This document shows positions 430 to 64,000 of a stretch of 64,000 nucleotides of DNA, piece after piece. Below the pieces are notes generated by a model that was not told the origin of the DNA, made no database searches, and worked only from the letters and a program-made list of their open reading frames with translations. This DNA comes from Proteromonas lacertae (lineage: Eukaryota). The position numbers and the translations under genes are program-made. How positions within the stretch are numbered: the stretch's first letter is position 1; each line of letters starts with the position of its first letter. Where the stretch lies: assembly GCA_002245135.1 (NCBI GenBank), contig NGBS01001182.1, positions 1 through 64,000 of the forward strand, in the 5' to 3' direction.

Positions 430-514
430 CCGAACTTAGCTCAGTTGGAAGAGCAACAGACTGTAGAAAGAAAATTGTAATCTGTGGGTCGCTGGTTCGA
501 TCCCGCAGTTCGGA
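430..514 (+). tRNA. tRNA-Tyr (GTA) with 13-nt intron (467-479)
   Basis: Acceptor stem CCGAACT/AGTTCGG, D-arm TAGCTCAGTTGGAAGAGC, anticodon stem ACAGA/TCTGT with CT-GTA-G, intron at the canonical 37/38 position, GGTTCGA T-loop, T-rich tract downstream; T-stem is one base short (possible indel). Confidence 0.92.
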
Positions 515-10900: not shown

Positions 10901-13900
10901 GCTGTAGCTGATTTAAAATATGTTGAAGTACCTAGTTTGATAATGCCAAATGCTGATTCAATTGTAGAGAAAGATAATAAATGGTATGTAAAAGATAAAT
11001 TACAATTTAAATGGACTAAATGTGAAGCAGAACATGATGAATATGGTTATGTATGTGAATTCTTCAAGAGTATTCCAACATATGAAGAATTAATAGAAAA
11101 GAAAGATAAGATCGGTAATATAAACTGTGTTGAAAACTCAATTGAAGATACATCTGATAATTTAAGTGAAGGATATTTAGTATGTGGAATATTGAGAAGA
11201 TCAACCAATGATGTAATATCAATGGAATATATAAGTAAGAAAAGTATTGATATTCAAGAAATATCCATGTATAAAGATGATAATAAGATCTATGCAAATG
11301 GTGATATAAGATTGAATTGGGCTAAATGTGAAAATGAAAAGAGTGATTATGAATTGATTGTAAACTTTTTTGATCATTCTCCCTCTGTAGATGAAGACTG
11401 GTCAGGTAAAAGTATTGAAATAAGCTGTGATAAAACCAAAGTTGATCATGAATATACCTCTGATTTAAAGAAGATTCACTTTGTAGTAAAATTGGTAAAG
11501 AAAGATAGTAAGATAGTATATGATGTAGAATCAATAAAACTACCATCATTTGATATAAGTAAATTAAATGTATCTTTCACCAATAAATACCAAAATCATC
11601 GTATTATATCTGGTTTTATTCCAATCGATTTCCCTAATTGTGAACGAAATCATAATCAGTACAGTATAATCTGTGATTTCTCTACAACCATACCAACTTA
11701 TGAATCATTAATGAATGGATTTAAGAATAAGATTGTATGTGATGCTTGGGAATTAGAAGGATTAACATCCGTTGGAACAGATGATAGTGTATTTGGTTGT
11801 ATGATGATTGAAAATGAGAGTAAAAAGATGGTTGAATTAAAATCAATCGATTTCGATCCTCATCAAAGGTATGATTTATTAATTTTTATAATTTAATAGA
11901 ATGGATTTTAGTAGTTTTGCTCTTTCAAGAACATCAGATTTAAAAACAATTAAAGCTGCTGGAAAGATTACTTATGTAAATTGGCCAAACTGTACTGCAG
12001 AAAAATCCCATTTCTTAGTATTATGCAAATTCTTAGATCATGTTCCTAAAGAAACAGATTTTCATATCGAAGGTTATCAGAAAGTAGATTGTGATGGAAA
12101 TGTATTTAATGTGTCAACTACTGTAAAAGCAAATTCTGTATTTGCTTGTGAACTGATGCAAAAAGAGAATAGAAAACAATATGATATGAAATACAAATCT
12201 GTTCCAACATTATTAAAAGAATATAAAGTAAAGAGAGAAGAAGACTTTTCCAAATTCAAAGCTGAAGGTATGTTAGGTTACACTTGGCCAGATTGCGATT
12301 TAGAAGTTCATAATTATGAATTATTCTGTGGAATATTCGACAATATTCCCGAAACAAATGAAATTCGAAAAGAAGAATATAAACAAGCCATTACTTGCAA
12401 TGGAAATAAGATAAATTTTGAATCTAAAGGTGTTGAAGATCATTATTTGACTTGTTTAATATATCGTAAAACAGATGAGATGGTAATTGATAAAATCAGT
12501 TCAGGAACGCCTAGTTTAAATATTGAGAATTGGTCAATGAAGATAGGAAAAGACTTAAGTAAATATGAATTGCGAGGAGATAATCGATTAGAATGGAAAA
12601 CATGTAATATGAACAATGAAGTAATGGACTTTAGAATAACTTGTGGATTCTATAAAGATGTTCCAAGTCCATCTGATTTGCGAAATAGTTGGGAAATGGA
12701 TATGGAATTAGAATGTGGTGGTTGGCCTTGGCAAGTGATGTGGACAAAAGATGCTTCTTACAAATACTGGGGATGTATGACCTATGATGGAAAAGATAAA
12801 GCTGTAGCTGATTTAAAATATGTTGAAGTACCTAGTTTGATAATGCCAAATGCTGATTCAATTGTAGAGAAAGATAATAAATGGTATGTGAAAGATAAAT
12901 TGCAATTGAAATGGACTAAATGTGAAGCAGAACATGATGAATATGGTTATGTATGTGAATTCTTCAAGAGTATTCCAACATATGAAGAATTAATAGAAAA
13001 GAAAGATAAGATCGGTAATATAAACTGTGTTGAAAACTCAATTGAAGATACATCTGATAATTTAAGTGAAGGATATTTAGTATGTGGAATATTGAGAAGA
13101 TCAACCAATGATGTAATATCAATGGAATATATAAGTAAGAAAAGTATTGATATTCAAGAAATATCCATGTATAAAGATGATAATAAGATCTATGCAAATG
13201 GTGATATAAGATTGAATTGGGCTAAATGTGAAAATGAAAAGAATGATTATGAATTGATTGTAAACTTTTTTGATCATTCTCCCTCTGTAGATGAAGATTG
13301 GTCAGGTAAAAGTATTGAAATAAGCTGTGATAAAACCAAAGTTGATCATGAATATACCTCTGATTTAAAGAAGATTCACTTTGTAGTAAAATTGGTGAAG
13401 AAAGATAACAAGATAGTATATGATGTAGAATCAATAAAACTACCATCATTTGATATAAGTAAATTAAATGTATCTTTCACCAATAAATACCAAAATCATC
13501 GTATTATATCTGGTTTTATTCCAATCGATTTCCCTAATTGTGAACGAAATCATAATCAGTACAGTATAATCTGTGATTTCTCTACAACCATACCAACTTA
13601 TGAATCATTAATGAATGGATTTAAGAATAAGATTGTATGTGATGCTTGGGAATTAGAAGGATTAACATCCGTTGGAACAGATGATAGTGTATTTGGTTGT
13701 ATGATGATTGAAAATGAGAGTAAAAAGATGGTTGAATTAAAATCAATCGATTTCGATCCTCATCAAAGGTATGATTTATTAATTTTTATAATTTAATAGA
13801 ATGGATTTTAGTAGTTTTGCTCTTTCAAGAACATCAGATTTAAAAACAATTAAAGCTGCTGGAAAGATTACTTATGTAAATTGGCCAAACTGTACTGCAG

Positions 13901-16455
13901 AAAAATCCCATTTCTTAGTATTATGCAAATTCTTAGATCATGTTCCTAAAGAAACAGATTTTCATATCGAAGGTTATCAGAAAGTAGATTGTGATGGAAA
14001 TGTATTTAATGTGTCAACTACTGTAAAAGCAAATTCTGTATTTGCTTGTGAACTGATGCAAAAAGAGAATAGAAAACAATATGATATGAAATACAAATCT
14101 GTTCCAACATTATTAAAAGAATATAAAGTAAAGAGAGAAGAAGACTTTTCCAAATTCAAAGCTGAAGGTATGTTAGGTTACACTTGGCCAGATTGCGATT
14201 TAGAAGTTCATAATTATGAATTATTCTGTGGAATATTCGACAATATTCCCGAAACAAATGAAATTCGAAAAGAAGAATATAAACAAGCCATTACTTGCAA
14301 TGGAAATAAGATAAATTTTGAATCTAAAGGTGTTGAAGATCATTATTTGACTTGTTTAATATATCGTAAAACAGATGAGATGGTAATTGATAAAATCAGT
14401 TCAGGAACGCCTAGTTTAAATATTGAGAATTGGTCAATGAAGATAGGAAAAGACTTAAGTAAATATGAATTGCGAGGAGATAATCGATTAGAATGGAAAA
14501 CATGTAATATGAACAATGAAGTAATGGACTTTAGAATAACTTGTGGATTCTATAAAGATGTTCCAAGTCCATCTGATTTGCGAAATAGTTGGGAAATGGA
14601 TATGGAATTAGAATGTGGTGGTTGGCCTTGGCAAGTGATGTGGACAAAAGATGCTTCTTACAAATACTGGGGATGTATGACCTATGATGGAAAAGATAAA
14701 GCTGTAGCTGATTTAAAATATGTTGAAGTACCTAGTTTGATAATGCCAAATGCTGATTCAATTGTAGAGAAAGATAATAAATGGTATGTGAAAGATAAAT
14801 TGCAATTGAAATGGACTAAATGTGAAGCAGAACATGATGAATATGGTTATGTATGTGAATTCTTCAAGAGTATTCCAACATATGAAGAATTAATAGAAAA
14901 GAAAGATAAGATCGGTAATATAAACTGTGTTGAAAACTCAATTGAAGATACATCTGATAATTTAAGTGAAGGATATTTAGTATGTGGAATATTGAGAAGA
15001 TCAACCAATGATGTAATATCAATGGAATATATAAGTAAGAAAAGTATTGATATTCAAGAAATATCCATGTATAAAGATGATAATAAGATCTATGCAAATG
15101 GTGATATAAGATTGAATTGGGCTAAATGTGAAAATGAAAAGAGTGATTATGAATTGATTGTAAACTTTTTTGATCATTCTCCCTCTGTAGATGAAGACTG
15201 GTCAGGTAAAAGTATTGAAATAAGCTGTGGTAAAACCAAAGTTGATCATGAATATACCTCTGATTTAAAGAAGATTCACTTTGTAGTAAAATTGGTAAAG
15301 AAAGATAGTAAGATAGTATATGATGTAGAATCAATAAAACTACCATCATTTGATATTGGTAGTTTAGATTTCTCATTTACCAATCAGTATTATAATCACA
15401 GAATAATCTCTGGTTTTATTCCAATCGATTTCCCTAATTGTGAACGAAATCATAATCAGTACAGTATAATCTGTGATTTCTCTACAACCATACCAACTTA
15501 TGAATCATTAATGAATGGATTTAAGAATAAGATTGTATGTGATGCTTGGGAATTAGAAGGATTAACATCCGTTGGAACAGATGATAGTGTATTTGGTTGT
15601 ATGATGATTGAAAATGAGAGTAAAAAGATGGTTGGATTAGAATATGTCGAACTAGCAGGATTAATAATGGATGAGATAAAAATTAAGCATGCTGATAATA
15701 ACAAAATCACAGTGAATGGTTTATTAAAATACAAATTAGGAAAAGATGCCAAGGCTGAAGATTTCCATTATGAATGTAAATTATCAAATGAACTTCCAAC
15801 TCCATCATTATTCGATTATGAAAAGAGTGAGGTAATAAATGTAGAAGGAAATGAAGTAAACTTCTTTGAAGAATCTAATGAATTCTTTGGTTGTATTTTA
15901 TATCGAGTAAATGACAAAGGAATAATCGATTTACAATATAAAGAATTACCTGAATTCAATGTAGAACATTTACATTTAGAACCGAATAGAAATAGCCATG
16001 TATGGATTCCAGAAGGTGATATAACATATAAATGGTTTAGTTGCGGAATTAATAAAGATAAATTCGAATTAGCTTGTGAATACAGTGATAATGAACCAAG
16101 TTCCGTGAATTTGGACAAAGCTAGTAAATTTGATATTGTTTGTAGTGGAACAAATCTTACTTCCTTTACTACTGATCTAAATAATGAAGTTTACTTGGGT
16201 TGTTCTTTAGTGTCAAAAGATGATAAAGAAGTTTATGATTTCCACTTCATCAAAGGAAAAGAAAGTCATGATAGTGATTCTTCAAAAGTATGGATGATTG
16301 TTGTTACTTCTGCTTCTTGTGTCATTGCATTCCTTATTATTTTTACATTGGTTTGTTTCTTTGTCAGAAGTATGAATCTTAGAAGAAGAAAGAATTTGGA
16401 TGAAAAGTCTGACATTGCTGCTGAGAAATCATTACTAGCTAATGAGCAAGCTTAA
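7972..16455 (+). CDS. Giant type I membrane/surface protein (~2,776 aa) with ~26 tandem ~104-aa Cys-containing domains
   Basis: Exons 7972-7977, 8011-8072, 8100-9968, 10000-11868, 11900-13768 and 13800-16455 splice in frame; signal peptide MSRFIILAVILAFASIAVAQ; C-terminal TM (VWMIVV...LVCFFV) then basic RRRK. Confidence 0.85.
8100..15634 (+). repeat. Tandem array of four 1,900-bp units (1,869-nt exon + 31-nt intron), arrangement A-A-B-B
   Basis: Unit ATGs at 8101, 10001, 11901, 13801; near-identical over the 3' ~1.26 kb; the first 609 nt differ between units 1/2 and 3/4. Confidence 0.97.
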
Positions 16456-22351: not shown

Positions 22352-22460
22352 ATTGAGATTCTAAAACTCTTATTGATTATAAATGAAGTGAAGATCTAAA
22401 AAAACAAAAGATTTTAAAAAATTTATCTCAAACTTGTTTGATTTTTATTTTTTCACATTA

Positions 22461-24406
22461 ATGTCTGTATTCTTATTCATTTTATTGTTTTTCTTTATAG
22501 GAAGCAGAGAAAAGAAAAAGGGATGAACAGGAAGATGAATCATCCGATGATGAAGTTGGTCCAATGCCAATATCAAAGGATCTTACAACAGAAGCACCTA
22601 AAAGAAAGAAACATAAGGGTATTTTACATAATATATAATTTTATAATATTAATAGTATTGAAAGGTGCAAAAGTATTACTTGATGCTTTACCAAGCGCAG
22701 ATATGTATGAAAAGAGTTATATGCATCGTGATTACATAATGCACACACTAATCACACCATGTACTGACTTTTTAATAACAGCCAGTAAAGATGGTGATAT
22801 TAAATTTTGGAAAAAGATGTTAGAAGGAATAGAATTCGTCAAACATTATCACGCGCATATGCAAGCAATCACAGGAATAGCGTGTACACCAGACGGTCAA
22901 AAGATTTGCAGTATTTCTGAAGATAAATCAATCAAAATATATGACGTTTTAACATTCGATATGATCAATATGTTTAAAATAAATTTCACTCCTTATGCCG
23001 TATGTTGGGTACCAACATCAACACAATTATTATTGGCAATCTCTGATAAAGATAATGGAAAAATTAGTTTATTTAAATATGAAGAAAAAAATAAAGTAGT
23101 TAAAGAGGTGAATAATCATTGTTCTCCTGTTAGTTTAATGTGTTATAATGCCTATGCTAAATGTATAATATCTTGTGATATAGAAGGAGTTATAGAATAC
23201 TGGTCAGTAGATAATAATAATGAATTACCATTCAAATATATCAGTTTTAAATATAAAAGTGAAACGGATTTATTTTCATTAATGATTTCAAAATCTCAAG
23301 CTACTAGTTTATCTTGTAGTCACAATGGAAAACTATTTGCAATAACTGATAAAGATGGACAAATCCGAATATTTAAATTTAAAACAGGTAAAATATATCG
23401 ACAATACGATGAAAGTTTGAAAAAAATAGAAGAAGATCAATTAAGTGGCAAATTAAAATTAGATGATATAGATTTTGGTAGAAGACAATCTTTAGAAAAA
23501 GATTATTTAAAATCAGAAGTATCAGCTGCTAGTAATGTCGTATTTGATGAAAGTGATAATATAATAATATATCCAACTTTAATGGGTATAAAGATAGTAA
23601 ATATACTGGAAAATAAAGTGATGAAAGTATTAGGAAAAGTAGAAAATGAAAGGTTTTGTTCTATTTCTTTATTTCAAGGAATTGCGAAGGTGAATACTCA
23701 GATTAAAGGTGAAAAAATTGATGATTCAAATAATCATAAAATTCCAGAACCAGATCCAACTCTCTTTTGTTGTTCTTTTAAAAAGAAAAGATTTTATTAT
23801 TTTACTAAAAGAGAGCCTGAAGAAATCAATGAAAATGAAACTGTAGAAGAGAATGAAGGAAGAGATGTGTTTAATGAAAAACCAACTGAAGATGAATTGC
23901 AATATATAGCCATGAATTCAAAAGAAGCAGTGAAATATGGAAATAAAGCCGTTATACATACAACCTATGGTGATATTGAGATAGAATTATACCCCCGAAA
24001 AACCCCCAAAACAAACGAAAATTTTTGTGGCTTGGCTCGAAAAGGATATTATGATAAAGTGATTTTTCATAGAGTTATTCGTAATTTTATGATTCAAACA
24101 GGTGATCCAAATGGTACAGGTACTGGTGGTGAAAGTTTGTGGGGTGGATACTTTGAAGATGAATTAAGATCAGATTTAACACATGATGCTTTTGGTGTTG
24201 TTTCTATGGCTAATGCAGGTCCAAATACGAATGGGAGTCAGTTTTTTATTACTACTGTCCCTTGTCCACATTTGAATGGCAAGCATACTGTGTTTGGGAA
24301 GTTAATTAAAGGTGATAAAGTAGTGAGAAGAATTGAAGGTGTGAAAACGGATAAAAATGATAAACCGATTGAAGATATTGAGATAATTAATATTGATATC
24401 TATTAA
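22461..24406 (+). CDS. PPWD1: WD40-repeat cyclophilin (peptidyl-prolyl isomerase)
   Basis: LPSADMYEKSYMHRD, GIEFVKHY, DFGRR, FHRVIRNFMIQTGDP, SMANAGPNTNGSQFFIT; first exon ATG TCT|GT. Confidence 0.97.
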
Positions 24407-24540: not shown

Positions 24541-26276
24541 ATGCCTTTAGATGAAGTAGATGATGATGATGATGATAAGGCCATCTCAAATGAACATATT
24601 TTAGGTATATTTGTGTGATTTATCGTTTAGGCTCCCAATTAATTGATGCATGTAAAAAAGGTAATTTTGATGAATGTGAAAGATGTCTTGGAGAAGGTGC
24701 AAATCCAAGTTATCCAGATGAAAGAAAATGGGATCCTTTATTATGGGCTTCTTATTATGGTTATGCAAAAGTATTAATATTCCTCAATTATTCTAATATA
24801 GATATGTCAATTATTAATAGCAAAAGGTGCAACAACAGCATATGTTAGTAAAGTCCATGGTCTAAAAGCAGATAAAGGATCCGATCCTTACGTATATTCC
24901 ACAGTAAATCGAATTCCAATAAATTCTCCACTCCATTGGGCTGCATTTAATGGTCATCTTGAAACAGTAAATATTCTATTAAAAGAAGGGTATGAAGTAA
25001 GTGATCGAGATTCATGTGGTAATACTGCACTACATTTAGCAGCAACTAATGGTCACATAGATGTAATTGAATCACTATTAGCAATTGGAATGGATGTTGA
25101 GTTAAAAAATAATCATGGAAATACTCCATTAGATTTAGCAACTGATGAAAGAACAAGGAAATTTTTATTAAATTTAATTCCATCGAGAAAGTTGTCTATC
25201 ATGTGAAAAAGAATTCGATTTTAAGAATTGGAAATATTACTGTAGTTTATGTAAAAGTGGATTTTGTGGAGATTGTACAATTCTAGAAGAAAGAGTAAGT
25301 AAAAAAGATAAAGAGTTATTTATATATAAACGATATTGCAGACAATGTCTTTCAGAATTGAAGTTTAGTGAAGAAGAAGTAAGAAGGACATTAGTGCCAG
25401 AAGGTAGAAACTTAGAGGAGAATGATATACCGATTTTAGAGGAAGTAATTAATAAAGCAATTAATAAAGATGCTGATAATGTATTGGTAGATGAGAGTCA
25501 TAAAGCGTATAATAGTTTGTTGGCTTCAGTTGCATTGGAGAAAGTAATAGATAAAGTTAATCAATCAAGGTATACATAATAGTTTTATAATTCTTTCTCA
25601 TTTTTCTTTTTTTAATATTTATTTTTTATATATTCTGTTTAGACCAGTTACTGCATCACCACTAATCCTTCAATTAGAACGAGAAATAAATAACTGTAAA
25701 GTCGTAGGAATTAGTGAAAATCTAATGAAGAAATCAACCAACTTATTAACAGCCTTACAATATGAAAAGAAACTTTGTGGATCTTTAGAAATTTGTAGTG
25801 CAATAAAATGTGGTACAAATAACGATCAAAGTGATATAAACCGATTAGGAAGTCTATTAAATAGTTCAGCCAGTTATCCAGTTCATGTTGAAACATTCCA
25901 GAAATGTCAAAGTCTTTTCAATCGTCTAACTAGTGAAGTTGAATTAGAGAATGCATTGAAAGAACCAACTGTTCAAGAAGGTGAAACTCCAGAATTACCA
26001 ACAACTTATACATTTGAAGATGGAACAACAGTCGAGTCATTATTAGAAAGCTTGAGAAAGAGACATGAGAGATTAGAAAAGGCTGTGAGTGATGGTGAAA
26101 CGAATAAAGTGAATGAAGAATTATTGGCTAAAAGTCAAGAAAGTTTGAAGAAATTGACTGCTGATTTAGAGACTGAAGAAGCTGCTGAAGCTGAAAGACA
26201 AAGAATTGCTGAAGAGAAGAGATTGAGAGCTTTAAGGAGAAAGAAGAGAGGGAAGAAGAAGTCAAAAACTCAATAA
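24541..26276 (+). CDS. Ankyrin-repeat protein with FYVE-like zinc finger and C-terminal coiled coil
   Basis: PLLWASYYG, SPLHWAAFNGH, GNTALHLAATNGH, GNTPLDLA; CxxC pairs at ~25195-25350 (after a frameshift); basic C-terminus. Confidence 0.8.
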
Positions 26277-26425: not shown

Positions 26426-29023
26426 TTACAATTCATCAAATTTTCTATACATATCTTCAATCTCAGCCTTTCTGTGACTTCTTGATCTATGCCATAAGAA
26501 TAATCCAACAACTACAATCACTGCAGCAATCACAATACAAACGATTGTGATTGTAGCAGTAGTTGTATCTGGTTTTGGAGTATCTGTTGGATCAGGAACT
26601 CTATTAAATGGTGTTGGATCTTGTTCAGGAATTGGATAAGGTTTATTCTTTGTTCCCCAAGCATGTAATGTATTTTCATCAGCTTTAATTTCATCAATAA
26701 CAAATTTTGGACCGAGTTCCTTTAGGATAGATATAAACTGTTTGATCTTTAGCTAATTCGACACTCCAATAACCAGCTTTAACATGAACTATTTTTACTG
26801 TTGCTGGTGTATGATCGAATTCACTTGTTAAATCATCCACTCTGATCTTTAATGGTGATCCAAATAATGATGTTATACTTATCCAATTGGTTTTACCTAA
26901 TTGTAAATGACCAGAAACACTAAATCCACCTTCAGCTTGTAATTGATAGAATGTTGTATTTTCTAAAGCTTTTGGTCTTGTTGGGAAAACAGTGAACATA
27001 TCCTTCATCAGATCTTAATAACATATATTGTAAAGCAAAATGCCATTCCAAATGGAGATTCATTCACTGGAGATTCACTTAGCTTCCCAGTAGAATGTAG
27101 CTTGTCCAACTCGATGACATTTCCAAGCTTCTAGTAATGTTTCCCAAGCTTTTTCATCTCTACCAGGTATTAATTGATAAAATACAGAAGCCATTACAAT
27201 ACTAAAACCAATATCAGTTACTCCAAAACTTGTCCAATGATCAATTGTTTTAGTCATTACTTCTGCTAATTCTGGATTTCCTTCGTATGTTTGTGTTTTG
27301 AACGGATATACCATAAAGATATGGCTCCAATGTCGATGTTGGCTTGCTAATTTCGTATCTTTGCCTATCAAATATCCTTCTTTTTCATCTTCATGATATG
27401 GAATTAAATTATCCATTAAGTCTTTACATCTTTCAATCATTTCTTCATCTGCTACTTTTAACATATCAATAATTTTAGTTAAATGACTACAGCTCCATCT
27501 GATTATTGATAAATCCCAATGTTGTATCTTCACAACTTGTAATATTCAGGACTATATGTAGATGGAAAATGATATTTACCATCCTTATCTTTAGTAGCAT
27601 AATGATAATAGAAATTAGTAGCTCTTCTAAGTGTAGGATATAAAACATCTCTTAATAATGTCTCATTATGTGTATATTGATAATGTAACCATAATATTTG
27701 ACAAACCCAATTCAAGTTTCCTGTTATTACCCACCTCTTGCTTTGACTACATCACCTGCTGTTCCCCATGATTGACTATCTAATTTCCAATCCCAACCTA
27801 ATTCAGTACCTAAAGCACCAGAATCACCTCTAAATTTCTCTTCAACACTTTCAGTTATTGCATCTTTATTTTTATCCATAAAGTGTAAAAATGATAAGAA
27901 TTGATCAGCATGATTAGCTCCCCATAAAGGCCAAGCTGCCATTTGAACATTTAAATCCATATGGTAATCACTCCAGTATGACTCAGTATACCAAGGACCT
28001 AATAAATCATAAGCCCAACAGTTATCTTCACTTTGACATCTTGTTGCTGATCCAACTTTATACATTTGAATCCACCAAAAACTTTCAGATTGTTTATGTG
28101 GAATAGAGATGAAAGATTTCTTATAATAATCATGCCACCATTGTTTATGTTCAATATAATGCTCACCTACATCAGTTCGTATATAATCTTGAAGTATTTT
28201 TATACCACCATCTATTGCATTTACATCTCTCTTATTACATTCCATGTTACTTGATTATCAATTGTTACATAATATGTAATATGATGGTCTTTATGATAAG
28301 TGATATTCGTCATAACCATTGAAAAATCACCACCAGCTAACATCACTTTTTCACAGTAATAGAAATATCTTCCACCTCTTATTTCATCTTTACAAACTGC
28401 ATCTGGATTGAATTTATAGTTATTCAACATTCTCTTGGCAAATGGTCTGCTCTTGGATGGTATTCGATTGGAACTATCTTTTCTTCACCTTCACTTTGCA
28501 TATCAATTACAAAGACATGATGTAAAGAATCTGTGAAAATTGTGTACCATATTTTACCTTTTGTGGTGACTAATTCACCTTCGATTTGTGCATCGTATAA
28601 GTTGATTCTGGCATTGCCTGATACTATATCTCCTGCTGGACGGATGTAGAAATAACCAACAGCCAATCTAAAACGATCAACTTCACTATTTAGATTATAA
28701 GATAAGTTGATTAATATTTATACGGATTGCCAGTTAGCTAAATCAGATCCTTTCATTCGATGATCCCACACATCAGCTCTACCAATATCGATTCTCATAA
28801 TACAATTGTCTGAATCATTCAAATATGTCAATATTCCTAGATTACCATTACCCACAAATGGAGCATCATACCACTTTTTATACCATGTTGAATTATCTGA
28901 AGCTTCAAACAACCATATAGGATCAGCCTTTTTCAAAAATCCCCTCCAATCAACTTTAACGTCTAGCTGAGCATTACAGTGTAATGCAAAGGCTAGAACA
29001 ACTAAAATCAAAAGATATTTCAT
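26426..29023 (-). CDS. GH95-like alpha-L-fucosidase with signal peptide and C-terminal TM anchor (frameshifted in this assembly)
   Basis: PFVGNGNLG, WSDYHMDLNVQM, PSTYSPEY, HRHWSH, LQAEGGFSVS; N-terminus MKYLLILVVLAFALHCNA; hydrophobic ITIVCIVIAAVIVVVGLFLW near the C-terminus. Confidence 0.8.
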
Positions 29024-29492
29024 TTGGGTGTTCGAAAAAAGATTTAAGTTGTTTTTGTTATATCTTATTTCATCAACATAATTATTTAGACAATAACCTA
29101 TTTTCTTGCTTATTGAGTTATGCTCATCTATTATGCACATTATTTTGAAATACAAAGATGTGTTACTTAAGAAATGTGTATTAATGAAGAAAAATCAATA
29201 CTAAAAATATATAATCGACCTTTTAATGTTATTATGATATGATTTTACATCCTTTTTAAAAACAATCAAAAATAATTCTTCTTATAAAACAAAAAATACT
29301 ATAGGCAACAAATGCTACACTACTTGAATATAATTGTTTCATATTAATATTCGTTCAATCCATAAAGAATGCTGAGATATAAAGAAATTAAATAAAAGAA
29401 GATACAAGGTGCCAAAAAATAAGCCAAAAAGTATCAAGCCTCAAACGCATTTCATCATCAACCAATCACAACAAAAAGTATCTTATTCATCA

Positions 29493-30684: not shown

Positions 30685-33600
30685 TCATTTCACTGTTATA
30701 GGTCCAGAAGCACAATTAGGTATTGGTTGACTATCAATTTCTTTAATTTTCTATATAAATAAAAAAAATTCAATATATATACATTCAAAGTTGCTTTTAA
30801 TCTTCGATTTTCTAATTCAGCTTTGCTTCTCTCCTTTGCTAATTTCTCTCTTTCACTCCACACCTTCTTATAATCTTCTTTCAATTTATTATAAGCACTA
30901 TCCAATTTATCTTTATGTTCATTCAATTCAACTTGTTTTTCCTTCTATTTTAATAATAAATAAATAAATATATATATACATATAATTGTTCTTGTTGTTG
31001 ATTATGTATTATTTTCATATTATTATATTCATTATTTATATGATTTAACATCTTTTCTGTCTTATTCAATTTCTTTGTAGCTTCTTCCAACATCTCTTTC
31101 TTCTTTTTTGTCTCATTTTCTAAGGTTTCAGTAACACCAGTCACTTTCTCTAGTTTATTATGTAACTCGTTATTTTCACATTGTAAGCTAATCATGACTT
31201 TCTTATATTCATCTTCTTTAATTTTTATCATTTCTGAGAGTTGATTACATTGTTTTTCTAATTCATTCTTTTGATCTAATAAATTCTTTTCACTTATTTG
31301 TAATTGAATTAATTTATTGTTATAATTATCTTCTAATTGTCGTTTTGACTCTTTATATTTACGAATTATTAACTCTTTTTCTTTTTCCTGCTCTTCATTT
31401 TCTTGTTTCATTTTTTGTAAAGCTTCTACTGCATTTTCTGCAAGTTTTTGAGCTTCTTTATTCAATCCTTTCAAATTCATTTTATCTGTTTTTGCACGTT
31501 TTAAATCATTTCGAAGTTGGATTATTGCTTTTTCATGATTATTTTGCAGTTCTTTATATTTATCTTCTGTTAGTTTGAGTTGTTCATATAATTTAATTTG
31601 GTCATTTTCTTTTTCATTTAATTTGTTTAATATCATTTGAGCTTGAGTTGTATGTTCGTTTAACTGTATTTCAATATCTTTACAAATAGAAATTAAAGAA
31701 AAAAAATAATAATAATATAAAAAAGATATCTTTTCATTTTTTCATTAAACAATTGAATCCTCTTTATTATAGTTAATATCGGTTCTTGCAATTGCCCTAA
31801 TAATATCTGATCATCATTCGTAAAACCACCATCAGTCTTATTTACACCAATTATAATCACTTTTATCTTATTATATACATCAAATAATGGTAATCCAATT
31901 ATGTTTCTATAATAAGTACTTGATATTGGTATAATAACAGATAATTCGTTAATAAATGGAGTTAAATCATCACATTTACTGATTATTTTGGGTTTTGATG
32001 ATTCTATTATATTATATATAAATCCACGTCCACTACTAATTACTCCTCTTTTAGTGGATATTTCATTATAATTATTATTTTCAATCAATAATAAACAGCA
32101 TTCTTCACAATCCATTACTTTACTCAATTCACGTTCAAATGTTGGATATAAATCAGCCATCGTATGTATTGATAATAATGATGAATAGAATATATTTAAT
32201 CTCTTTAAATAATTGATAGTCTTTTCATCTTTTACTTTGTTCATTTCATATTCTTGATTGATCTTATTGTAGTCTTTATTATTATTGTGACGGATCCTTT
32301 GCATTATTATTGAGATTTCACCTGCACAGAGAGTTAAGATGGTGTTGTCATTCATATTAAATTTTCCCAAAGTATTGTCATTTTCATTTATACTTTCATT
32401 ATTATTATTTATATTGTTATTTGATAGTTTATTTTCACATTTTACAATTCCTATCAAATTACCATTTTCACTCTTGATTGTAGCGCATATTATATTTCTA
32501 CCAGTATCTATGGTTTTATCACATCTTATATCGTTAAATGGGTCATCGAAAATTGTAGTACCACCATGATTTAACATATATTGGAATATACCTCTATTAA
32601 TTGGATGTTTGATGATTTTACCATTTGCAATATCTTCAGTCCATAGGTAAGTACCTTTCTTATCACATATATAGAGAGACGAACTTTCACAATTTAATAA
32701 TTCTTTTAAATCATTGTAAACTATACTCATTAATGTTTCGATCTTATTACTGGATAAAAATCCATCTTGTAGACTGAGTAAAGAGTTAACTGTTTTGATG
32801 GAGGTTTGTTTGAGGATTTCATCATTACTATGTTCATTCACTTCCTTTTGGCAGTTTGTTAATAAGAGATTCTTTATCATTTAAGGTGTTATTTAAGGTG
32901 GTAATTTCTGTATGGGATTCGTTGATGATTTGACACTTTTCAAGACAGGAACCAATATGATTAGCTATTGTTAGATAAACTTCATTATTACCATTGAAAT
33001 ACTCCTTCTCATTATTTCCAAATAATAAAATTCCGTTTATATTGCCTTTATTGTCATGGAGAGGTACTGATAATACAGAATGACATAGTAATGGATTGTA
33101 TAATATATCATATTGTGGATCATATCTTTTATCTTCACATAACTCTGTTATTACAACAAATCTGCCTGTGGAATAAGTTAGGCCTGTCAAACCTTTGTTT
33201 GGCTTGAATCTGATTTTCCTATTTCTGATATATGTTACTAATGATTGTTTATCAGTTGTTAATGAGAATAATGTCATGGAAGACATTCCCAATAGATTAC
33301 TACATTGATTTACTACAACTTCAATGAGATTCTGAATTGAGATTGAATGAGAAGTTATTTCATACACTTTCATAATTCCAGATGTAATATCTTGTTTCAA
33401 GTAAATAAATTAAAGAATTCTAATTATATATATTTAAAAACATAAAAATAGGATATTTTCAGCAATATTCTGCTCACATTCTTGTGTTTTCTTCACCATC
33501 TTGTTATATTTTGAGCATAATGACAATATAGGTGAAATATAACCACAATATTGTTTAAACAACTCTTCATGTTGAGAAGTGATATTGTTACTTCCACATT

Positions 33601-35339
33601 CTAATCCACCAATCATTTTGCCTTTAGATGAGTATATTGGAACACAAAGTAATGATTGAGTTGGTATCTTTTGAATACCATCAATATTCATATTGTATCT
33701 AACATCTTGAAGAACATTTAATACTTATATATAATTAAGGGAAAGAAAAAAATAATATATGATAGAAAATAAGAGTATAAATAGATAAGAGATAATATAT
33801 AGTAATTTATAATAATTTAAAAAGGATATATTTATAACAGTATTATTCAATAAACATTTTCCAATAATTCCATCATTCTTATTAAACTTATAACAATTTC
33901 CTCTAACATAAGTGAATATCTTTTCATTCTTATTATCTAATATCCATATAGTAATCCATTCTAAATCAATAAGTGGAGGTAATTCCTTATGAATCATATT
34001 ACATAGTAAATTATAATCAGTTGTTGATTTGAAGAGTGTTAATAATAACTTGATGGTTAAATCTTTTCGTTTTTGTTCAGTGAATAAATTGATGTGGAAT
34101 GTTTTCGGTGTTTTTAATAACTTCGTCTGTCTTTTGATTTGTGTCATTTATCATGTTATGTAATTCCATAAATCTATAGGAAAATAAAAATAAATAAATG
34201 AGAAATAAAAGAATGATATACTTAAAAGCTCTATTATAAGTCAATAATAATTGTATTTCTTATATCTTCCACAGCATTAATGAATATATTGTTATTAGTC
34301 CATCCCATACATATTATTATATTTATCATATTATTGATATTAATAGGAATGAATATTACTGTATGATATCGATGTACTTCATTAGGTGTTAATTAATATA
34401 TCATTTGTTCGAGATACTTGATCGTATAATTTCTATATAAATAGAGTAATAATATAATAATAATATATACAGATAAATATTCATCGCTGATTATTATATT
34501 CGATTTTGATGATTGGTTGAATATTTGAACATGATCTGTATAAAATATATCCAATAGTAATGTCTGTAAATGTGAATCAATTTCATCCACTGAATTGTAC
34601 TTGTACATTGTATTATTAAAAGTAAAACAACATTTCCAACGACTATATTTTTAATAATTGAATAAAACATACGTTATTTCACTGTGACATTCACTAATTG
34701 TGTTATTCAAATTATTTAACATTTCTCTTTGCTGATCTGCTTCATTCTGAAGTGTTAGTAAACTATTATTGAATTGATTTACCATTTTGTTATGTTGTTG
34801 TAGTTCATTGAATTGTGCCTTTTCTACTGATTGTAATGATGATAAACATCCACTAAATATTTCTACTAGTGTGTCTAAACCTTCTAATTCTGTTGGATCA
34901 ACTCCTTCAATGTAAATACAGCTTGTTAAATCCTATTATAATATTATAATATATAAATACTCCTTCATCAGTAAATACAGGATAGCATGAATGATATAAA
35001 CCATTTCTTTCATCACAACTATTAATTATGAGTAAATGTAATATACATTATTGCTTCATGTGTGTCTCTTAACTCTTCCACATATGAACCTGCTTCGTCA
35101 GACAAATCTATTGAATACTTAACAAAATTAAAAATACCTGGTTGAGGAACTGTTAAGTCAACTATTAGTACTTCTTTAATTGATGGTATTGAAGACACCA
35201 TGGCTTTTAGACGCTTTGCAGCTTCAACTATAAAAAATATAAAAGCATGAATATAAAATTTATAATTAATGTCATTAATCATACGTGTCACACTAAATTC
35301 TTGTTTTGACTCCTTAAAAAACTTTACAGATTCATTCAT
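30685..35339 (-). CDS. Multi-GAF-domain protein with C-terminal coiled coil
   Basis: Repeated GAF signatures (GIIGKC, D.RY...D, SLLCVPI, SVLSVPL, CENK...F...D, VNKTDGGFTNDD); no PDE or cyclase catalytic motif seen; contains three AT-AN introns. Confidence 0.8.
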
Positions 35340-43902: not shown

Positions 43903-45808
43903 TTATTTACTTAAAGTTCTACAAATTATTTTATCATTTTTATTTTTTATACCTCCACCTAACAATTTAAAAGATGTTCTTTCTTTAGCTTCTAAATAAA
44001 ACGCTTCTCTTGCCATTTTACAAAACTATAAATATAATATAATATATATATACATCATTATCTGGTAATTCATCACTTGTATCACAAATATAACTCTTCA
44101 TTATGCCTTTTCCTTTCACATATATATCACCTCTTTCAGCAAAATACTTCTGCTTTTCAACAGGCAATTCTTTATAAGTTGCTTCACTGATATGAATTAA
44201 ATCAGGAATTCCATTACTCTCCATTCTACTGGCTGTATTTACTGTATCACCAAATAGACAGAATCGTGGGACTTTTTGACCTATTACACCACCATATGCT
44301 GTGCCTGAGTGAATTCCAATTCTTATTTTTAATATTTCACCTGTTGGTTTGACTATACATCGTGAAATTTTGAGTAATTCTCGAGCTGTGTCAAGCATTC
44401 TTTCAGCATGATTTTTAACACCATCATGACCAGCTACTGCCATATATGCATCACCAATCTATAAATCAATAAATATAATAATAATAATAAGATAAGAATG
44501 AGAATTTTAAATATTATATATAAATACAGTTTCTACTTTATAAACACCATATTTCCCCACAATCTCATCAAATTCAGTGAATAAACTATTCAACAGATTA
44601 ATTGTCTTAATTGTATCAACTTGTGCAGTCATTTCAGTGAAATTCACTATATCTGTAAAGAGAATTGTTACTTCATTATATTCTTCAGCAATATTCATAT
44701 TACCTGCGATTAATTGATAAGCAATATGACGTGGTACCATTGTAGTAAGCAGCTAAAAAAATAATATATAAAATAATATATATATATATATACTTTTCTA
44801 TATTTATCACTTTCATATTTATTAATCAATAATTTCTTCATTTTATTCAAATTATCTATTCTTAGACTAATATCATCAAATGATATTTTATTATTAAATA
44901 TTTCATTCACACCAACATCCATACATTCTTTATACTTTATATCATCTTCATTTCCACCTACTATTATACTCATTTCATCTTCTTTTATCTCTTTTCTTAT
45001 CTTCTTTATTAAATCAAAATCATTTTCATTTACATAATCCATTATAAATAAAGATATATCGCTATTATAACTATTATTATTATTGTTATTATTAAGTAGT
45101 TTATCAATTACTTCTTTTTCATTATATAATATTTGTGTCAAGTATTTCTTTTCATCTAATACTTTAAGAATTAATTCACGAAGGTTTAAGTTATTGCGGA
45201 AATATATAATACAATTATTGGGAAGTTCTAAATTGAATAAATCATTGTCTATATCATCCATTCCATTGCTATCTTCGATTTCACTGAAGTTGAATTGTTT
45301 ATATGTATTCTTTCTATCTCTGATCATCTTGGGTGGAAGTAATGCTGAAGATTTTCGTTCTATTTTACATATTAAAAATAAATATATATATACTTGATTT
45401 TCTATTATTAGATGATTGTTTTGATATATTATATCCTATTACTTCCATAGATTGAGGTCTTTTATTTTTATTCATTGTTCCTGTACCTGGTAATACTCTG
45501 TAATGATCATCATCTTTTGGAGTACATAGTAATGGAGGTGTGTATATCATTGTGGATTGAAAATGAGTTGGAGGATATTTGCGATGAAGAGGAGTTTGCT
45601 TGAATGTGGGAGTAGAAGATGCTGGCCTTTTATTTTCAGGAGAACTTGACTTAGGACTCAAGGCTTCTTCGATATTCTTCACAATTTCAACTTTTAATGG
45701 AGAAGTAGCTATTGTTGTGGTACTTTCATTGGGTGCTGAATGAAAACTGGTAGTTGATATGTTTAAAGAATCGTTATTTACATGTGATGAGGAACAAGAT
45801 GCTCCCAT
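43903..45808 (-). CDS. Class III nucleotide cyclase (guanylate-type residues) with receiver-like domain and N-terminal acylation motif
   Basis: VTILFTDIVNFT, YKVETIGDAYM, RIGIHSG, PRFCLFGDTVNTASRMES; REC-like LFIMDY...DLIKKIR...GVNEIF; starts MGASCSSS. Confidence 0.92.
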
Positions 45809-48023: not shown

Positions 48024-50647
48024 ATGCAAATCGCTGAAGATTCACAAATACTGTTCCCAACAAGGGGAAGTACTTTCCTAGAACACAAAGAGAGCAGTAT
48101 TGTTCCTCCTAGCAGAAGAAAACATTTGTATAATTGGTAATTATTGATTTAGTCATGTGATTGTTTCTAAGCATCGAGGTTTATGTGGCCAAATAGTAGC
48201 TTCCATTTTAAGGTATAATGAAATAGTAACTATATTGAAATAGTTCGTTTTTAATACTAATGTCATTCTTAACTAATCCAGTTGTCTTATTTAAAGGTGA
48301 ATTAGCAGCTTATTTACCTTTAGCTATCGCACAAAGTGCAATTGGCAATCGTATATACATTTCTATTAACTAAATATGAATAGTTTTAGTACAATTAGTA
48401 TTCACAACAATTGGTAAATACAATAGCAGTATAGTAAGATTAAGTTCAGAAAGTTTACCATTTTTAGTAACAGTTCGTAGACGCATTGTTAAAAGAAAAG
48501 ATGGACTGCTGAAAATAAAGCCTCCACATTATTATGGTGTATAGCCTTCACCTCAATTTACACAGGAATACTCAGTCTAATAATAAGTGCCTTGAAATTA
48601 GGTTCAATTTTAAATTATCTCCCTATTCCAGTCAGAGGTGGTGTATTTGGTTCCATTGGTATTGTCTTTTATACTTCTGCATATTCCGTAGCTTATGGTG
48701 AAGATATCAGTACTAGAGTTTTTACTCATTTTAATTTAGCAATGGTTTTCTTATTAAACCTCATAGGATTATTCACATACTTCATGTCCATGTGGAAACC
48801 ACATCCATTAACAGTACCACTCACATTCATCGTAGGAACATCAATATTTCATATTGTCTTATTCAGTTTAGGATATAATCTGTCAGACGCTCAGGACAAT
48901 ACTTGGCTTATGCCCGAGCCGAAGTTCGTCAATTTCTGGAACTTATACGTCTCAATGGATCCTCGTAAAGTCAATTTCAGTTTCTTATTCTCTCAAACTC
49001 CTCAATTATTATTAGCCTGCAATATTAGGTCCAATTTTAAACACAGGAATCAATACAATAGTGTTAGATAAGATGTACGATGACCAATCTGATTTAGATA
49101 TAGCTTTACGTCATGTTGGAATTGGTAATATCTTAGGTGGAATATGTGGTGGATATCCATCATTCCAATATATTAGTGCAACTTCAATACATCGAACTTG
49201 TGGAGGAACTAAAAGAATATCAACAATCATTATATGTGTGATTATGCTAATATCATTCTTTGTTCCTAAGATGTTATTGGCTATTATTATAATCCCTAGG
49301 TTCTTACTGGGAGCAATCTTTATACATATAGCTATTGATTTCTTATGGAGTGCTTTATATAGTGATTTCTTTGAAGTTAATTTGTTTGAATATTTGATTA
49401 TATTGATTATGGTAATTGTTAGTTTATTTCACTGATGTTACTATTGCTTTATTAGTTGGTGTTATTATTTGTTTTGTTTTGTATATTTATAATTCAGCAC
49501 ATTCTGATTATATATCGATGGAGAATGATACTTCACAAGTACAGAGTAATATGTTGCAATCAATTGATAAAGTATATATATATAACTTATTATTTCTCAC
49601 ATTTTCTTACTTTATTTTTTATCTCCTTTTATAGGATTTATTTAAACATTCTAAACAACTTATCAAAGTCTTCAAATTAGCAGGATATATATTCTTTGCA
49701 CCATCTTATGAAATTAAAGAAAGAATTATTAAACAAGTAAATATGTTTAACTCCATGAATTATAAACAAATTACTCATATATCATTATATATATTATTAT
49801 TATCTTTTCTTTAATATATAAAAGTTGTTGTTGATTTCACTATTTGTACAGGAATTGATACAACTGCAACTAATGTGGTAATTGATATGGTTGAAAAATT
49901 AGTAACTCAGAATATTCATGTAGGATTAATCTTCGCCAATCAAAAGCGAAGAATTGAATTTCATAAATTATTTAAACAAAGGAAAATATTAGGTGGAAGA
50001 AAAGATGATTTTTTTAATATTTATGGCACTTTAGAACAAGCTTTAAGTGACTTGTGAATTAAAAATCGATTTACCTGTCGTTTTATCTCCACGAAATGAA
50101 ATTAGTGAATTTAAAAATATCAATTTACAAAATTTGAATTTGTTCTGTAGAATGTTGAAGAATATTCGAGGTAAAGCAAGCCGTCAAGCTTTACTACGAT
50201 CTGTTCAATTGGGACTTGGTAAAATAGAATGGATTAATAAAGGTGAATTAGTATATCACGAATTTGAAAGAAGTGATGGAGTTTATTTCTTATGTTATGG
50301 ACGAGTAAGTGCAATTATTTTAGACACTATCAATGAAAGAGTTTCATTGTTTAACCGTCAAGAAAATGATATAAAAGATTTAAAGAGATTATGGACAATT
50401 ACTGAAGTGGGAAGTTTGATTAGGAAATGTGTTGGAAAGAAAAGGAATAAGTTATACAACAGAAACAATGATATGTGATACAAATGTTTTATTATATCAT
50501 ATTAATGAAGAGAATTTATTTAAATTTGAGGAATTAGATGAAAAAGAATACACTGTGATAAGTCAGTGGGAATTAGAATTGAGATATAGGAAAATGAAGT
50601 ATTTAATTGAGAGAGTGAAAATGAGTCGTCAATTTATATTAAGTTAA
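48024..50647 (+). CDS. SulP/SLC26 anion transporter with STAS and cNMP-binding-like domains
   Basis: LKLGSILNYLPIPVRGG, GIGNILGGICGGYP, LAGYIFF, VVDFTICTGIDTTA, KGELVYHEFERSDGVYFLCYGRV; several frameshifts; one AT-AA intron. Confidence 0.88.
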
Positions 50648-57208: not shown

Positions 57209-58180
57209 ATGAATAGAAAGGAATTATCAAAAACTTTTGTTCATCATATGCACTTCATTAATTACCCTAGTACAATTAATATAGAAAAGTAATTATCAAA
57301 ATGTTAATTTTGTTTATATAGAATATTGATCGGTGATCCTACAGAATACATGCCAATTGTAAATTTCATAATAGTTGGATATTCTCCAGAAATAGCAAAA
57401 TTGATCGATGTTGATATTAATGGACTTACAGATCGTTTATTCATCACCTACATATTCAAATTCATAGAAAAACATTTTCATTTAGATGCAAATATGACAG
57501 TAAATGATTTTTTCACTCCAAAAAGATGTATTCACAGAAAAATGAATTATGTGATTGAATTAATTAATAGCATAAGGAAATATTTACAACATGACATTCC
57601 TGTTTATCCTCCAGTTACATTATATAACAATAAAGAATACAATCCGTCAAATAGTTATCTTCACGTTTTAAATGTTTCGAATATAAATTCAGAAATAGAT
57701 TCTATATTAAATATTGATAAAATTAGAAAACCTTTGAAGAAAGTAGATACAGTCATTTCTTCTTCAGATAGTGAAGAATCTACAACAACGACTAATAGTT
57801 TTACATCATCAGTTAAATCATCATCTTTTAATGATTCAGATAATGAAATTAATAGTAGTTTAAAACCAATAAAATATCATAAACCAAAATCTACAACGAA
57901 TCAAAGCAGTATTAATAATACACACATTTCTTTTGAAGATAAAACATCTGATTCAATTAATTATTCATCCTTATTACCTTCAAATCCTAATATATCAATA
58001 GAAAGTGATAGTAAAAGTGTCAATGTGACAGTTATTCCAAAATCTACAGGAAGTACGTTAATTGATGATAATTCAATTATTTCTAAACAGTTACAGCAAA
58101 TACTTGAACAAATGTCAAAAATGAATAGTAGGCTGGAGAGATTAGAAGAAAAAATGAGTAAAATTGAATTGAAAACTTAA
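57209..58180 (+). CDS. CEP44: Centrosomal protein CEP44-like
   Basis: INYP...ILIGDP..YMPIVNF..VGYSP.IAKLI....TDRLFI..IFK....F......T...FF.......K N-terminal domain; S-rich linker; terminal coiled coil. Confidence 0.75.
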
Positions 58181-59693: not shown

Positions 59694-59804
59694 TTTACTT
59701 TTTTTTTAATTTATGTAATTTGTCTTATATATTTTATTTTTATGTGAATTGAATTATTTATAAAAAATTAAAAAGAAAAAAAGAACTAATTAAACTATTT
59801 TTAT

Positions 59805-60458: not shown

Positions 60459-60563
60459 TTTCTAAAAAAACGTAATTTACATTGTCAATTTTACCTGATT
60501 TTGTAAATCATTTATTTTGTAAGATAAACACCAAAAACAACATCAAAATAGAAAAAAATATTT

Positions 60564-61359: not shown

Positions 61360-64000
61360 TTACTCTATTCTATTCATAATTTTCAAGTTTAGGCAGTTAA
61401 TCAAATATTTACTTTCTTTAAGTGGTAAATTATTGAAATTAAAGATATATGATAATTATATATTCATAAATAAAAAAGGATATATATCGTTAAAAGAGGT
61501 ATTTCTTCAGATTTGTCTATTATAAATCCACATTTTATATTCTTATAGTCTAATACATATTTAATTATAGCCAATCGAATCATAATAATCTCTTTGATAG
61601 TAATATCAATTTTAATCTCCTTTTCATCACCATTGGTGTTTATATTTTCAGAATTAGTGATCGAAATACCATTAATAATCTCATACAACGTATATAAACA
61701 ATTTTCATGATATCTAAGAATTAATGAACAAAAATTTCCACTATTTGCAAAATCTTTAAATCTGAAATTTCCACCAAGTGTATAAAACCCAATAGATTGT
61801 AAAATCAACATTATTTCACTAATATTCAAATTCTCTTTTCCACTAAATATATCAAATTCACCAATCATTTGTTGTAAAAACAAATCATTCTTTACATCAA
61901 ACAAAATTATGAAATTCTTCATTTCATTTTTTAAATAACTAAACAAGTTCAAATATTCAATATTTTCATAACAAATGAGTGGTAATATTGGAATATTCCT
62001 ATTTAAGGACATATAAAACAAATTCCCTTTACTATTTTCCAAACTAAAACACTTTAAAATATTATCATTTTCATCAATCAGTAAATTGTTCTTTATATGA
62101 TAATTATATATAATATAATTCACTATACCTATTGTTACACTGGATATGATGTTGTTATCTAAATAAATATCTAATTGAAATAGAGAGCTACAATTTAAAT
62201 TATCAAATCTATTATGAATATATATTTAAATAATTTCTATATACATTATTTTGCAAATATGATCTTGTTTTTCAAATTTATATGTAATAATATTTTTATA
62301 ATTATTTCTATTGTTATTAATAATGGTTTTATGATTGATAATATCAATTAATTGCATTCTAATTAGTGGAAAAGTTTCTCCACTGTTGATATTATTATTA
62401 GATTTAACTATAACATCATCATCCACTCGATAATAAGCAGATTCAATTCCATTTTTATCTTTTAAAATAATTGGAATTTCTATCTCTTTATTAGATGGAT
62501 ATATATAAATATTAGACTATTTAATAAAAATATAATAATAATATATATATATATATACAGTGGTAGTAGATGTTTTATAATATGCAAAATTATCACAAGG
62601 ATCAATACATTTAATATGAATTGGAGAATTCAATATACTTTCATTCTCAGATGTTAATATATAAATATCATAATCTCCAATTTCATAGAAACGTAATGTA
62701 AATTCATATATCAATTTGTCTTTATTTAATTTAATATCAATATTATTTGTTTGAGTTCCTGTTATATAACATTTTAAGTAATTATTTGTCAAGCTTATGA
62801 CTCGATTATTATCTTTATCGTGTAAGTGTATTTCGAAAGTGTAGTTTTTATTTTTATAATATTCTTTTTCTATTTTTGGTTTTATTGTTGATTTATCCAA
62901 GTCAATTTCACCATAAACACCTTCTATTAGATATGGACTTTCAGATATTGGCATTTTATTATAAAAAATGAATAATTTATATAATCCGATTTTTCTGAAT
63001 TTATAATTGATAATTATTTCATTTTTATTATTGATTGTGATAGAATAATCAGATTTATCAATATTTGGAATAAACTGAAGTTTATAATCTTCTAGTTTTG
63101 TATATTTAAATAATCTTAAATTCTTTAATGAAACAACAGTACAAGTATGAAATGAATGAATAGTACAAGGCGACTGTATTCCTCTAATCCCAACTATTAT
63201 AATAAATATAATCGTTATACTTTCATTTGATTGGATATTCATATTCTGTGGAATTTCTATAATAAACGGTGAATCTTTAATATTTTGAATTTGTGACAAA
63301 TTATCAACATCATCTTTATATTTCTTACTCATCGCTTTGATATAGATTTTAAGTGGATAATAAATAGTGGAAAATGTGTTATATTGAAAAGTATATTTCC
63401 CATTATTATGATCAATCAAACTAAATCCTATTTATAATTATTAATAATAATTTTAATATATATATATATTATACTATAAATATCATCATATTCTTCTTCT
63501 TTATTATTATTATCGATAACATTCCACGTATTGGTTTTATATAACAATTTCTCTCTTTCTTTCTCTTTATCATAACTATAAATTTCAATAGAAACATAAT
63601 CATCACCATTTGTTAAGTCTTTATTGCCATCACTAATGGCTTTTATCTCTATATTTACTAGTCCATCATTCACAACTATTAATAATAATAATATGTTATA
63701 TATATATATATACAAGGTTCTATTCCATTTCCACTAGCAATACACTTTATAGGTGACAGTATTGGTTCTTTTATTATATTTCTCAATACAATATCTTCAT
63801 CAATAAATCCAATTATTGTATGACTTCCTTTTGTTAATATTGTGTTGATTGTAGATGTATTCATTACGGTGAGTGTATGGAGTAACAGTGGAATGGTTTG
63901 GACGGAGTTTATATTGGGAATGCCAAGACGATTTTGGTTGTAATTACCCCAGACATACTATATATACATAATATAATAATATATATATATATATATATAT
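61360..64000 (-). CDS. Filamin/Ig-like repeat protein (5' end outside the window)
   Basis: SPIKCIASGNGI, DHNNGKYTFQY, IKDSPF, PISESPY, FEIHLHDKDNNR, ILNSPI; last exon joined by an AT-AC intron 61425-61483. Confidence 0.8.

Follow-up and report, generated by a model that had tools for sequence, protein, structure and literature searches.

Whether several introns of the minor (U12-type) class in a single protist gene were inherited or recently gained, and whether such introns may end in AA, are questions raised by a gene for tandem GAF domains in a stretch of genomic DNA of 64 kilobases (kb), positions 1 to 64,000 of contig NGBS01001182.1, hereafter the window. An earlier reading made from the letters alone (the sequence-only reading) had assigned three U12-type introns to this gene, two of them ending in AA, and had taken their number as a sign of de novo gain. 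Our analysis makes it probable that these introns, which carry minor-class signals, are spliced out by the minor spliceosome, one of them ending in AC and two likely in AA, and that two of them at the least have long been present in the lineage.

Minor-class signals in the GAF-repeat gene

The U11 small nuclear RNA (snRNA) reads an ATATCC/T donor, and U12 pairs with a (C/T)CTTTAAT branch point. The donors of introns 1, 2 and 3 (Table 1) are ATATCCTT, ATATCCTA and ATATCTTT, all of the ATATCC/T type, the first two matching the 5′ splice site RTATCC(T)T and the third differing from it by one mismatch, and the branch points, CCCTTAAT at 33741-33734 in intron 1 and TCTTTAAT in introns 2 and 3, are all close to TTCCTTAAC. 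The distance from this motif to the 3′ end is short throughout, at 9 nucleotides (nt) in intron 1, 8 or 15 nt in intron 2 and 12 nt in intron 3. An optimum of 11-13 nt between branch point and 3′ end has been reported, and AT-AG introns have been called disfavoured (PMC3584512; here and below, published work is cited for the accessible parts of each paper). A strict pattern of donor, branch point and G-poor body, composed after the introns had been seen, occurs four times in the window, in the three introns and at 61483 on the minus strand, as compared to 0.7 on average and never more than 3 in 200 dinucleotide shuffles of the window, and a looser donor and branch-point pattern showed no enrichment there (11 against about 9). 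Among the 118 GTA-start intron calls of the window just one contains a minor-type branch point. The coordinates and motifs of the sequence-only reading were recovered when the sequence was re-read, and its assignment of the introns to the U12 type agrees with their donors and branch points, with the shuffle test and with the keeping of the sites in homologues.

Gene model, reading frames and GAF matches agree in placing all three introns in one gene with GAF domains, as had been proposed. The exons of this gene are free of in-frame stops, and its product is laid out as an N-terminal part of ~330 amino acids (aa) without assignment, four tandem GAF domains and a C-terminal coiled-coil-like region of ~300 aa. 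The GAF domains were located with our own profile, built from 567 GAF stretches, and are matched also by Pfam and by PDB entries 1ykd, 4mcw and 2zmf.

Conservation of the intron sites in homologues

The homologues are open reading frames (ORFs) called on genomic contigs, some of which run into the introns. They include a close cluster (P0136-P0149, 14 ORFs) at 91% identity and a distant cluster (P0153), 15 of whose 16 members were listed, at 35%. Exon conservation halts exactly at the donor of intron 3 in 14/14 members of the former and in the 15/15 listed members of the latter, where the same phase-2 site reads R-Y-P, that is ATATCC, in all 14 close ORFs and R-Y-L, that is ATATCT, in all 15 distant ones. 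Of 543 residues encoded by the exon before intron 3, 8 vary in the close cluster, whereas the length of the intron body differs between its members; two frames spell the intron 3 branch point of the window, which appears as F-F-N in the read-through ORFs. The same F-F-N is seen in 13 members of the 35% cluster, followed by a stop 9 nt on, and in the four close alleles that are open far enough a stop lies as far from the branch point as the intron end does in the window. For intron 2, a single member of the 35% cluster, P0319, reads through: its upstream exon, decoded in the shifted frame, matches that of the window and ends in E-N/D at phase 0, after which come an ATATCA donor, a branch point and a TAC end before L-K-S-D, the window having TAC and then L-K-Q-D. 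Intron-position mapping in homologues, put forward as a check with the sequence-only reading, succeeded in this way for introns 2 and 3, which are shared even at 35% identity, and failed for intron 1. As judged from the shared sites, introns 2 and 3 are older than the split from the 35% cluster, whether this is orthologue or paralogue. Scans of Joint Genome Institute metagenomes for the pattern gave 106 and 596 matches, none of which was confirmed.

A third cluster (P0152, five ORFs, 33% identity) starts inside the exon, ends in an extra GT intron and is uninformative on the three sites. Its extra GT-start intron lies in GAF 3 and is absent from the window and from the P0136 and P0153 clusters; it reads as a case of major-intron turnover beside stable minor introns.

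Choice of the 3′ ends

All ends lying 5-22 nt past each branch point were listed by frame. Removal of introns 1 and 3 at AA leaves the frame open, and removal of intron 2 at the AC at 33401 does not, as assembled. In intron 1 no open end with an A precedes the AA at 9 nt, the AG one base beyond it (33724) being out of frame. Among 11 in-frame variants this AA end gave the highest score against the GAF profile, 64.5 bits with the next at 61.5, and it preserves both the 16-residue spacing seen in 192 of 197 GAF stretches and an Asn present in 123 of those 192. An AT end at 33716 scored 57.0 bits and was rejected, and the best GT-AG alternative reached 44.3 bits. In intron 3 the AA at 12 nt is open, as is an AT at 6 nt (31686), and the AG at 14 nt (31678) runs into a stop; the AT at 31686, a second AT at 31674 and a GA-AG solution at 31730-31678 are in-frame options which the sequence-only reading had overlooked. 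The AT end at 31686 was set aside, as the codon just before the AA varies among four close alleles whose exons differ at only 2 of 543 sites, which argues that this codon is intronic. On the combined evidence of frame, GAF spacing and homologues, the AA ends proposed for introns 1 and 3 are the most likely of the predicted ends, and we consider it quite probable that both introns end so.

For intron 2 as assembled, the choice of canonical ends in frame is limited to an AC at 33394 (15 nt) and an AG at 33391 (18 nt). The former, which had likewise escaped notice, would give an intron of 63 nt that is in frame without any indel. P0319 and the local error rate favour instead the AC at 33401 with an assembly indel, the end originally proposed, and we rate this end as probable on sequence grounds; an end at 33394 without indel lost ground after P0319 and the count of frame breaks, and is now a lesser though still appreciable possibility.

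Assembly errors and rival explanations

A number of observations weigh against the reading given here. The GAF test of intron 1 cannot tell an AA end from an AG end combined with an error, because a G lost at the junction would leave an identical protein. The spacing of branch point and end in P0319 itself is 15 nt, which counters the choice of AC 33401 in the window, and P0319 is the one read-through allele from which homologue support for intron 2 derives; P0153 and P0319 may be either orthologues or paralogues. Intron 1 was not seen in any homologue found, and the homologue stop at the end of intron 3 could be TAA or TAG. All three AA ends in the window (33725, 31680 and 49823) have an out-of-frame AG 1-2 bases downstream. 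An Rfam scan of the 64-kb window, and of this window only, returned one transfer RNA (tRNA) and no minor snRNA. The assembly is also noisy, frame breaks amounting to about one per 4 kb of coding sequence when those of the GAF gene (Table 1) are included; others, without intron signals, lie at 2237, 2849, 4232, 25183, 40638, 49430 and 56768. An unpolished assembly is the likely cause of these breaks, that at intron 2 included; the four others in the GAF gene had escaped the sequence-only reading. For the adjoining AGs at the three AA ends, chance, a bias towards G at exon starts or assembly errors may be offered as possibilities. A gene-finder GT-AG call within the GAF gene, at 32036-32004, was rejected, as relatives read through it.

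The rival that survives best accepts minor-type introns and holds one or both AA ends to be AT-AG ends masked by single-base assembly errors. An AG does lie 1 and 2 bases beyond the AA ends of introns 1 and 3, indels are frequent in this assembly, and among the Blastocystis ST1 introns read AT-AG accounts for 45 of 150 and AA for 7. On this explanation an error must nevertheless have fallen on one of a few particular bases at every one of three junctions, in two genes, and at intron 3 such an error is confined to the five bases after the AG, because the exon before this intron keeps the same frame in 29/29 homologous ORFs. A rough calculation of our own, which combines the local error rate with the frequencies of the ends in ST1, favours AA by about 5 to 1 or better per junction, and we regard masked AG ends as unlikely.

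Recent de novo gain of minor introns in this gene, for instance by a mobile element or by duplication, had been suggested from the presence of several such introns in one gene. Three minor introns among about a dozen would indeed seldom arise by chance (p 0.0002-0.008 for minor fractions of 1-4%, n = 11), two of the three are likely in phase 0, a bias tied to possible gain in Blastocystis (PMC10639083), an 8-base word recurs across the two ends of intron 3 (31733-31726 and 31681-31674, minus strand), and more distant multi-GAF proteins (~20% identity) such as P0151, 2051 residues long, are single long ORFs, albeit without usable positions. For introns 2 and 3, however, recent gain is refuted by our comparison, because their sites are common to the homologue at 35% identity. 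The intron bodies are in five of six pairs no more alike than those of ordinary introns, introns 1 and 3 sharing a poly-T tract and just 1/6 pairs standing above controls; the 8-base word is in register with the AG and not with the AA, and a flanking word of that length is found in 2/118 ordinary intron calls as well; and the three sites fall at positions of the GAF repeat that do not correspond to one another. Minor introns moreover cluster in genes as a general rule, beyond what randomness would give and in all 21 genomes tested (Moyer 2020, PMC7367187), with several minor introns per gene as in the one gene here. The introner signature of similar bodies, flanking duplications and absence in relatives was not found; an introner origin was rejected on the dissimilar bodies, the unexceptional flank word and the presence of the introns at 91% and 35% identity. 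The step from several minor introns in one gene to de novo gain is consequently not supported, recent gain being rejected for introns 2 and 3 and very improbable for the gene as a whole.

It is just as improbable that the window copy is a decaying pseudogene whose odd ends were once AC or AG. The gene has 4-5 frame breaks in 4.6 kb, more densely than the rest of the window, and a T in the intron 3 donor where 14 close relatives have C; its exons, on the other hand, are open and 91% identical to intact relatives, six or seven other genes have frame breaks too, the relatives keep a stop-like triplet at the intron 3 end, and ATATCT serves as donor in the 35% cluster also. Hardly credible at all is the notion that the segments are major-class introns or that the coiled-coil part belongs to a gene of its own: each intron does have GT-AG and GA-AG solutions in frame, and splicing of intron 3 at AG would end the protein directly after GAF 4, but the GT-AG solutions lose at least 20 bits in the GAF profile or delete residues conserved in relatives, the GT/GC-AG alternatives near the three sites either have no GTA donor or delete conserved residues, the GA-AG reading of intron 3 is in frame yet has no GATA-start counterpart among the ST1 introns listed, homologues at 35% identity retain the minor-type donor and branch point, and the coiled-coil part has its first Met after 14 open codons, with no intergenic gap in between.

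On the preferred explanation, that of minor-spliceosome introns with one AC and two AA ends, the 3′ end would be set chiefly by its distance from the branch point, 8-15 nt past the motif in this lineage, so that AC, AA or AG could serve. Selection would hold the choice of AA over the adjoining AG in introns 1 and 3, because use of the AG gives a stop 1-2 codons later. Inheritance of the introns would reach back at least to the split from the 35% homologue, and three in one gene would be in keeping with the known clustering of minor introns. In support are a third AA end, in the unrelated gene of a sulfate transporter (49823), and the AT-AA ends among the RNA-curated introns of ST1.

Other minor introns and comparison with Blastocystis

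Two further minor-type introns were found in the window (Table 1). The fourth ends 13 nt past its branch point, skipping AA and AT sites at 5-9 nt, and its removal opens the frame through to the stop. The fifth came from a relaxed scan, having been missed by the strict donor patterns; its best in-frame end is an AA followed by G, making it likely AT-AA, and its flanks show weak matches to successive parts of the Pfam STAS profile, 8-35 (E 0.14) and 43-105 (E 0.067). Candidates at 59828 and 50677, both on the minus strand, were rejected, the former being a coding membrane tail and the latter intergenic. AA is the likely end of 3/5 minor introns of the window, two of which had been picked in the sequence-only reading for their AA; against a rate of 7 in 120 the excess gives p 0.002 for 3/5 and p 0.16 for the unselected 1/3. 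Minor introns number about 5 in 110-120 overall and 2 in ~100 outside the GAF gene, the latter being compatible with the 1% of ST1 (p 0.26).

Blastocystis ST1 has been reported to possess 346 U12-type introns in 319 genes together with all four snRNAs (PMC5608401). In its supplementary intron list at least 336 rows start ATATCC, and 150 of these (rows 1-120 and 307-336) were counted by hand, giving AC 95, AG 45, AA 7 and AT 3 as ends; AT-AG introns are common among the rows read, contrary to their description as disfavoured in PMC3584512. The rows listed include at least three ATATCT donors and no ATATCA, and two genes with three minor introns each, OAO18147 and OAO17624. ST1 and the window share short AT-start minor introns amid GT-AG introns of ~30 nt (Gentekaki 2017, PMC5608401; PMC10639083), and a gene with three minor introns occurs in both, as AA ends likely do, ST1 having AC, AG and AT ends as well. 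They differ in that the minor introns of the window are longer (45-105 nt versus ~37-53 nt in most ST1 rows seen), end 8-15 nt past the branch-point motif rather than mostly 4-8 nt, probably have AA in 3/5 and carry C, T or A at donor position +6. Published Blastocystis data already contain AT-AA ends as well as genes with three minor introns, and a single such gene is ordinary for the group. Of 253 minor introns of Blastocystis described elsewhere, 77% are AT-AC and 49% in phase 0, with recent gain as one explanation offered (PMC10639083). According to the same source AT-AA is the commonest non-canonical minor-intron end in animals and plants, where all non-canonical ends together make up ~4% of minor introns, as compared to 3/5 in the small, selected sample here. 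It also summarises the gain of minor introns in Physarum polycephalum, likewise a protist whose ordinary genes are enriched in them, whereas the present counts concern one window and not a whole genome. No GAF gene was found in the part of the ST1 supplements reached, nor was an ST1 orthologue identified, and the Blastocystis end-of-gene motif TGTTTGTT occurs 6 times in the window, about the chance number by our own arithmetic.

Host of the window and its significance

The window is gene-dense, with 27.1% GC and short introns; the gene finder made 106 AT-rich GT/GC-AG intron calls with a median of 33 nt, 98 of them starting GTA. A value of 27.0% GC is given for Proteromonas lacertae, 21.5-23.1% for tortoise Blastocystis and 39-55% for other isolates (PMC12129017 Table 1), and all Blastocystis isolates are reported to have lost nucleotide cyclases (PMC12129017). 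In intron style the window resembles Blastocystis. It lies, however, outside both the 21-23% and the 39-55% GC ranges of that genus, and its cyclase gene argues against Blastocystis as host; a Proteromonas-like host is our inference from cyclase and GC, the organism being a gut-type protist likely akin to Proteromonas and Blastocystis. For a cyclophilin-WD40 gene (22442-24403), relatives were found at 89% and 69% identity, the best named matches being oomycetes at ~50%. In a quick one-gene tree of 52 rows (51 homologues and the window) it forms a long branch in a group with oomycetes and an ochrophyte (Shimodaira-Hasegawa-like approximate likelihood ratio test 98), outside the oomycetes, with a composition warning and with no named Opalinata among the matches.

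Newness may lie in this host, Proteromonas-like and not Blastocystis. Larue and Roy (PMC10639083) ask if the minor introns of Blastocystis, unusually rich in AT-AC and phase 0, were gained recently, and wish for more genomes from the clade; the word Proteromonas is absent from the main text of that paper, PMC10690189, in its accessible part, makes no mention of minor introns, and a literature search for minor (U12) introns in Proteromonas found nothing, the genome paper of the genus being outside the reach of the search. If the host is Proteromonas-like, its genome would be an outgroup for the recent-gain question, the GAF gene indicating two such introns to be old and stable across a distance of 35% protein identity. 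With the probable host, this conservation and the hint of a high AA share, a question posed in the literature becomes open to test. An older gain, in the stem of the protist group, is a possibility compatible with these data. A doubtful but far-reaching view would have a Proteromonas-like sister of Blastocystis with dense, all-AT-start minor introns (2-4%), AT-AA leading over an adjacent AG, gained in the Opalinata stem; were this true, it would be a second large creation of minor introns after Physarum, in a genome absent from the surveys considered. If the AA share holds genome-wide, the organism would further offer a natural system for the choice of 3′ ends with AA and AG side by side.

Product of the GAF gene and other features of the window

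The tandem GAF domains of the host gene have the same GAF subtype and motif spacing as those of an adenylate cyclase (1ykd), of PDE10A (2zmf) and of 4mcw, at 20-25% identity, but the host gene has a coiled-coil-like tail where the cyclase or phosphodiesterase domain would be. No catalytic domain was found with Pfam, the GAF profile or the PDB matches, and the tail, judged coiled-coil-like from its composition, matched no Pfam family. The gene likely encodes a GAF sensor or scaffold that has no catalytic function and carries a coiled-coil tail. An ESM Atlas search returned generic bacterial GAF clusters only, and no longer homologues of the large exon scored, which is weak evidence.

Table 1. 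Coordinates of the GAF-repeat gene, the minor-type introns and other features of the window
Feature	Position	Strand	Details
GAF-repeat host gene	30685..35339	minus	~1370 aa; 3 minor-type and 8-9 GT-AG introns
Minor-type intron 1	33725..33829	minus	105 nt, phase 0, within GAF domain 1; likely AT-AA
Minor-type intron 2	33401..33456	minus	56 nt, AT-AC, likely phase 0; assembly frame error likely at junction
Minor-type intron 3	31680..31729	minus	50 nt, phase 2, between GAF 4 and coiled coil; likely AT-AA
Fourth minor-type intron	61425..61483	minus	59 nt, AT-AC, near 3′ end of filamin-repeat gene
Fifth minor-type intron	49779..49823	plus	45 nt, donor ATATCATT, STAS region of sulfate transporter gene
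Extra base	32851	minus	Frame break in GAF gene, absent from 14/14 relatives; likely assembly error
Three frame breaks	34095..34400 (near 34395, 34255, 34097)	minus	No intron signals; three-frame reading; likely assembly errors
Adenylate/guanylate cyclase gene	43903-45808	minus	Cyclase domain 44021-44458, Pfam E 6.5e-36
CEP44-domain gene	57248-58180	plus	Pfam

Elsewhere in the window, 7972-16455 (plus) appears as one long gene with four tandem repeats of 1.9 kb, three of which open with the same 31-nt intron (9969, 11869 and 13769); the two repeats scanned matched no Pfam family. GH95 fucosidase-like pieces with few clear introns lie at 26426-29140 (minus) and a weak YceG-like match at 25551-26273 (plus), and a bacterial origin of these genes is possible. 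Two adjoining, similar small genes at 59800-61184 (minus) match no Pfam family and each have a hydrophobic tail, and the tRNA gene found with Rfam lies at 430-514 (plus).

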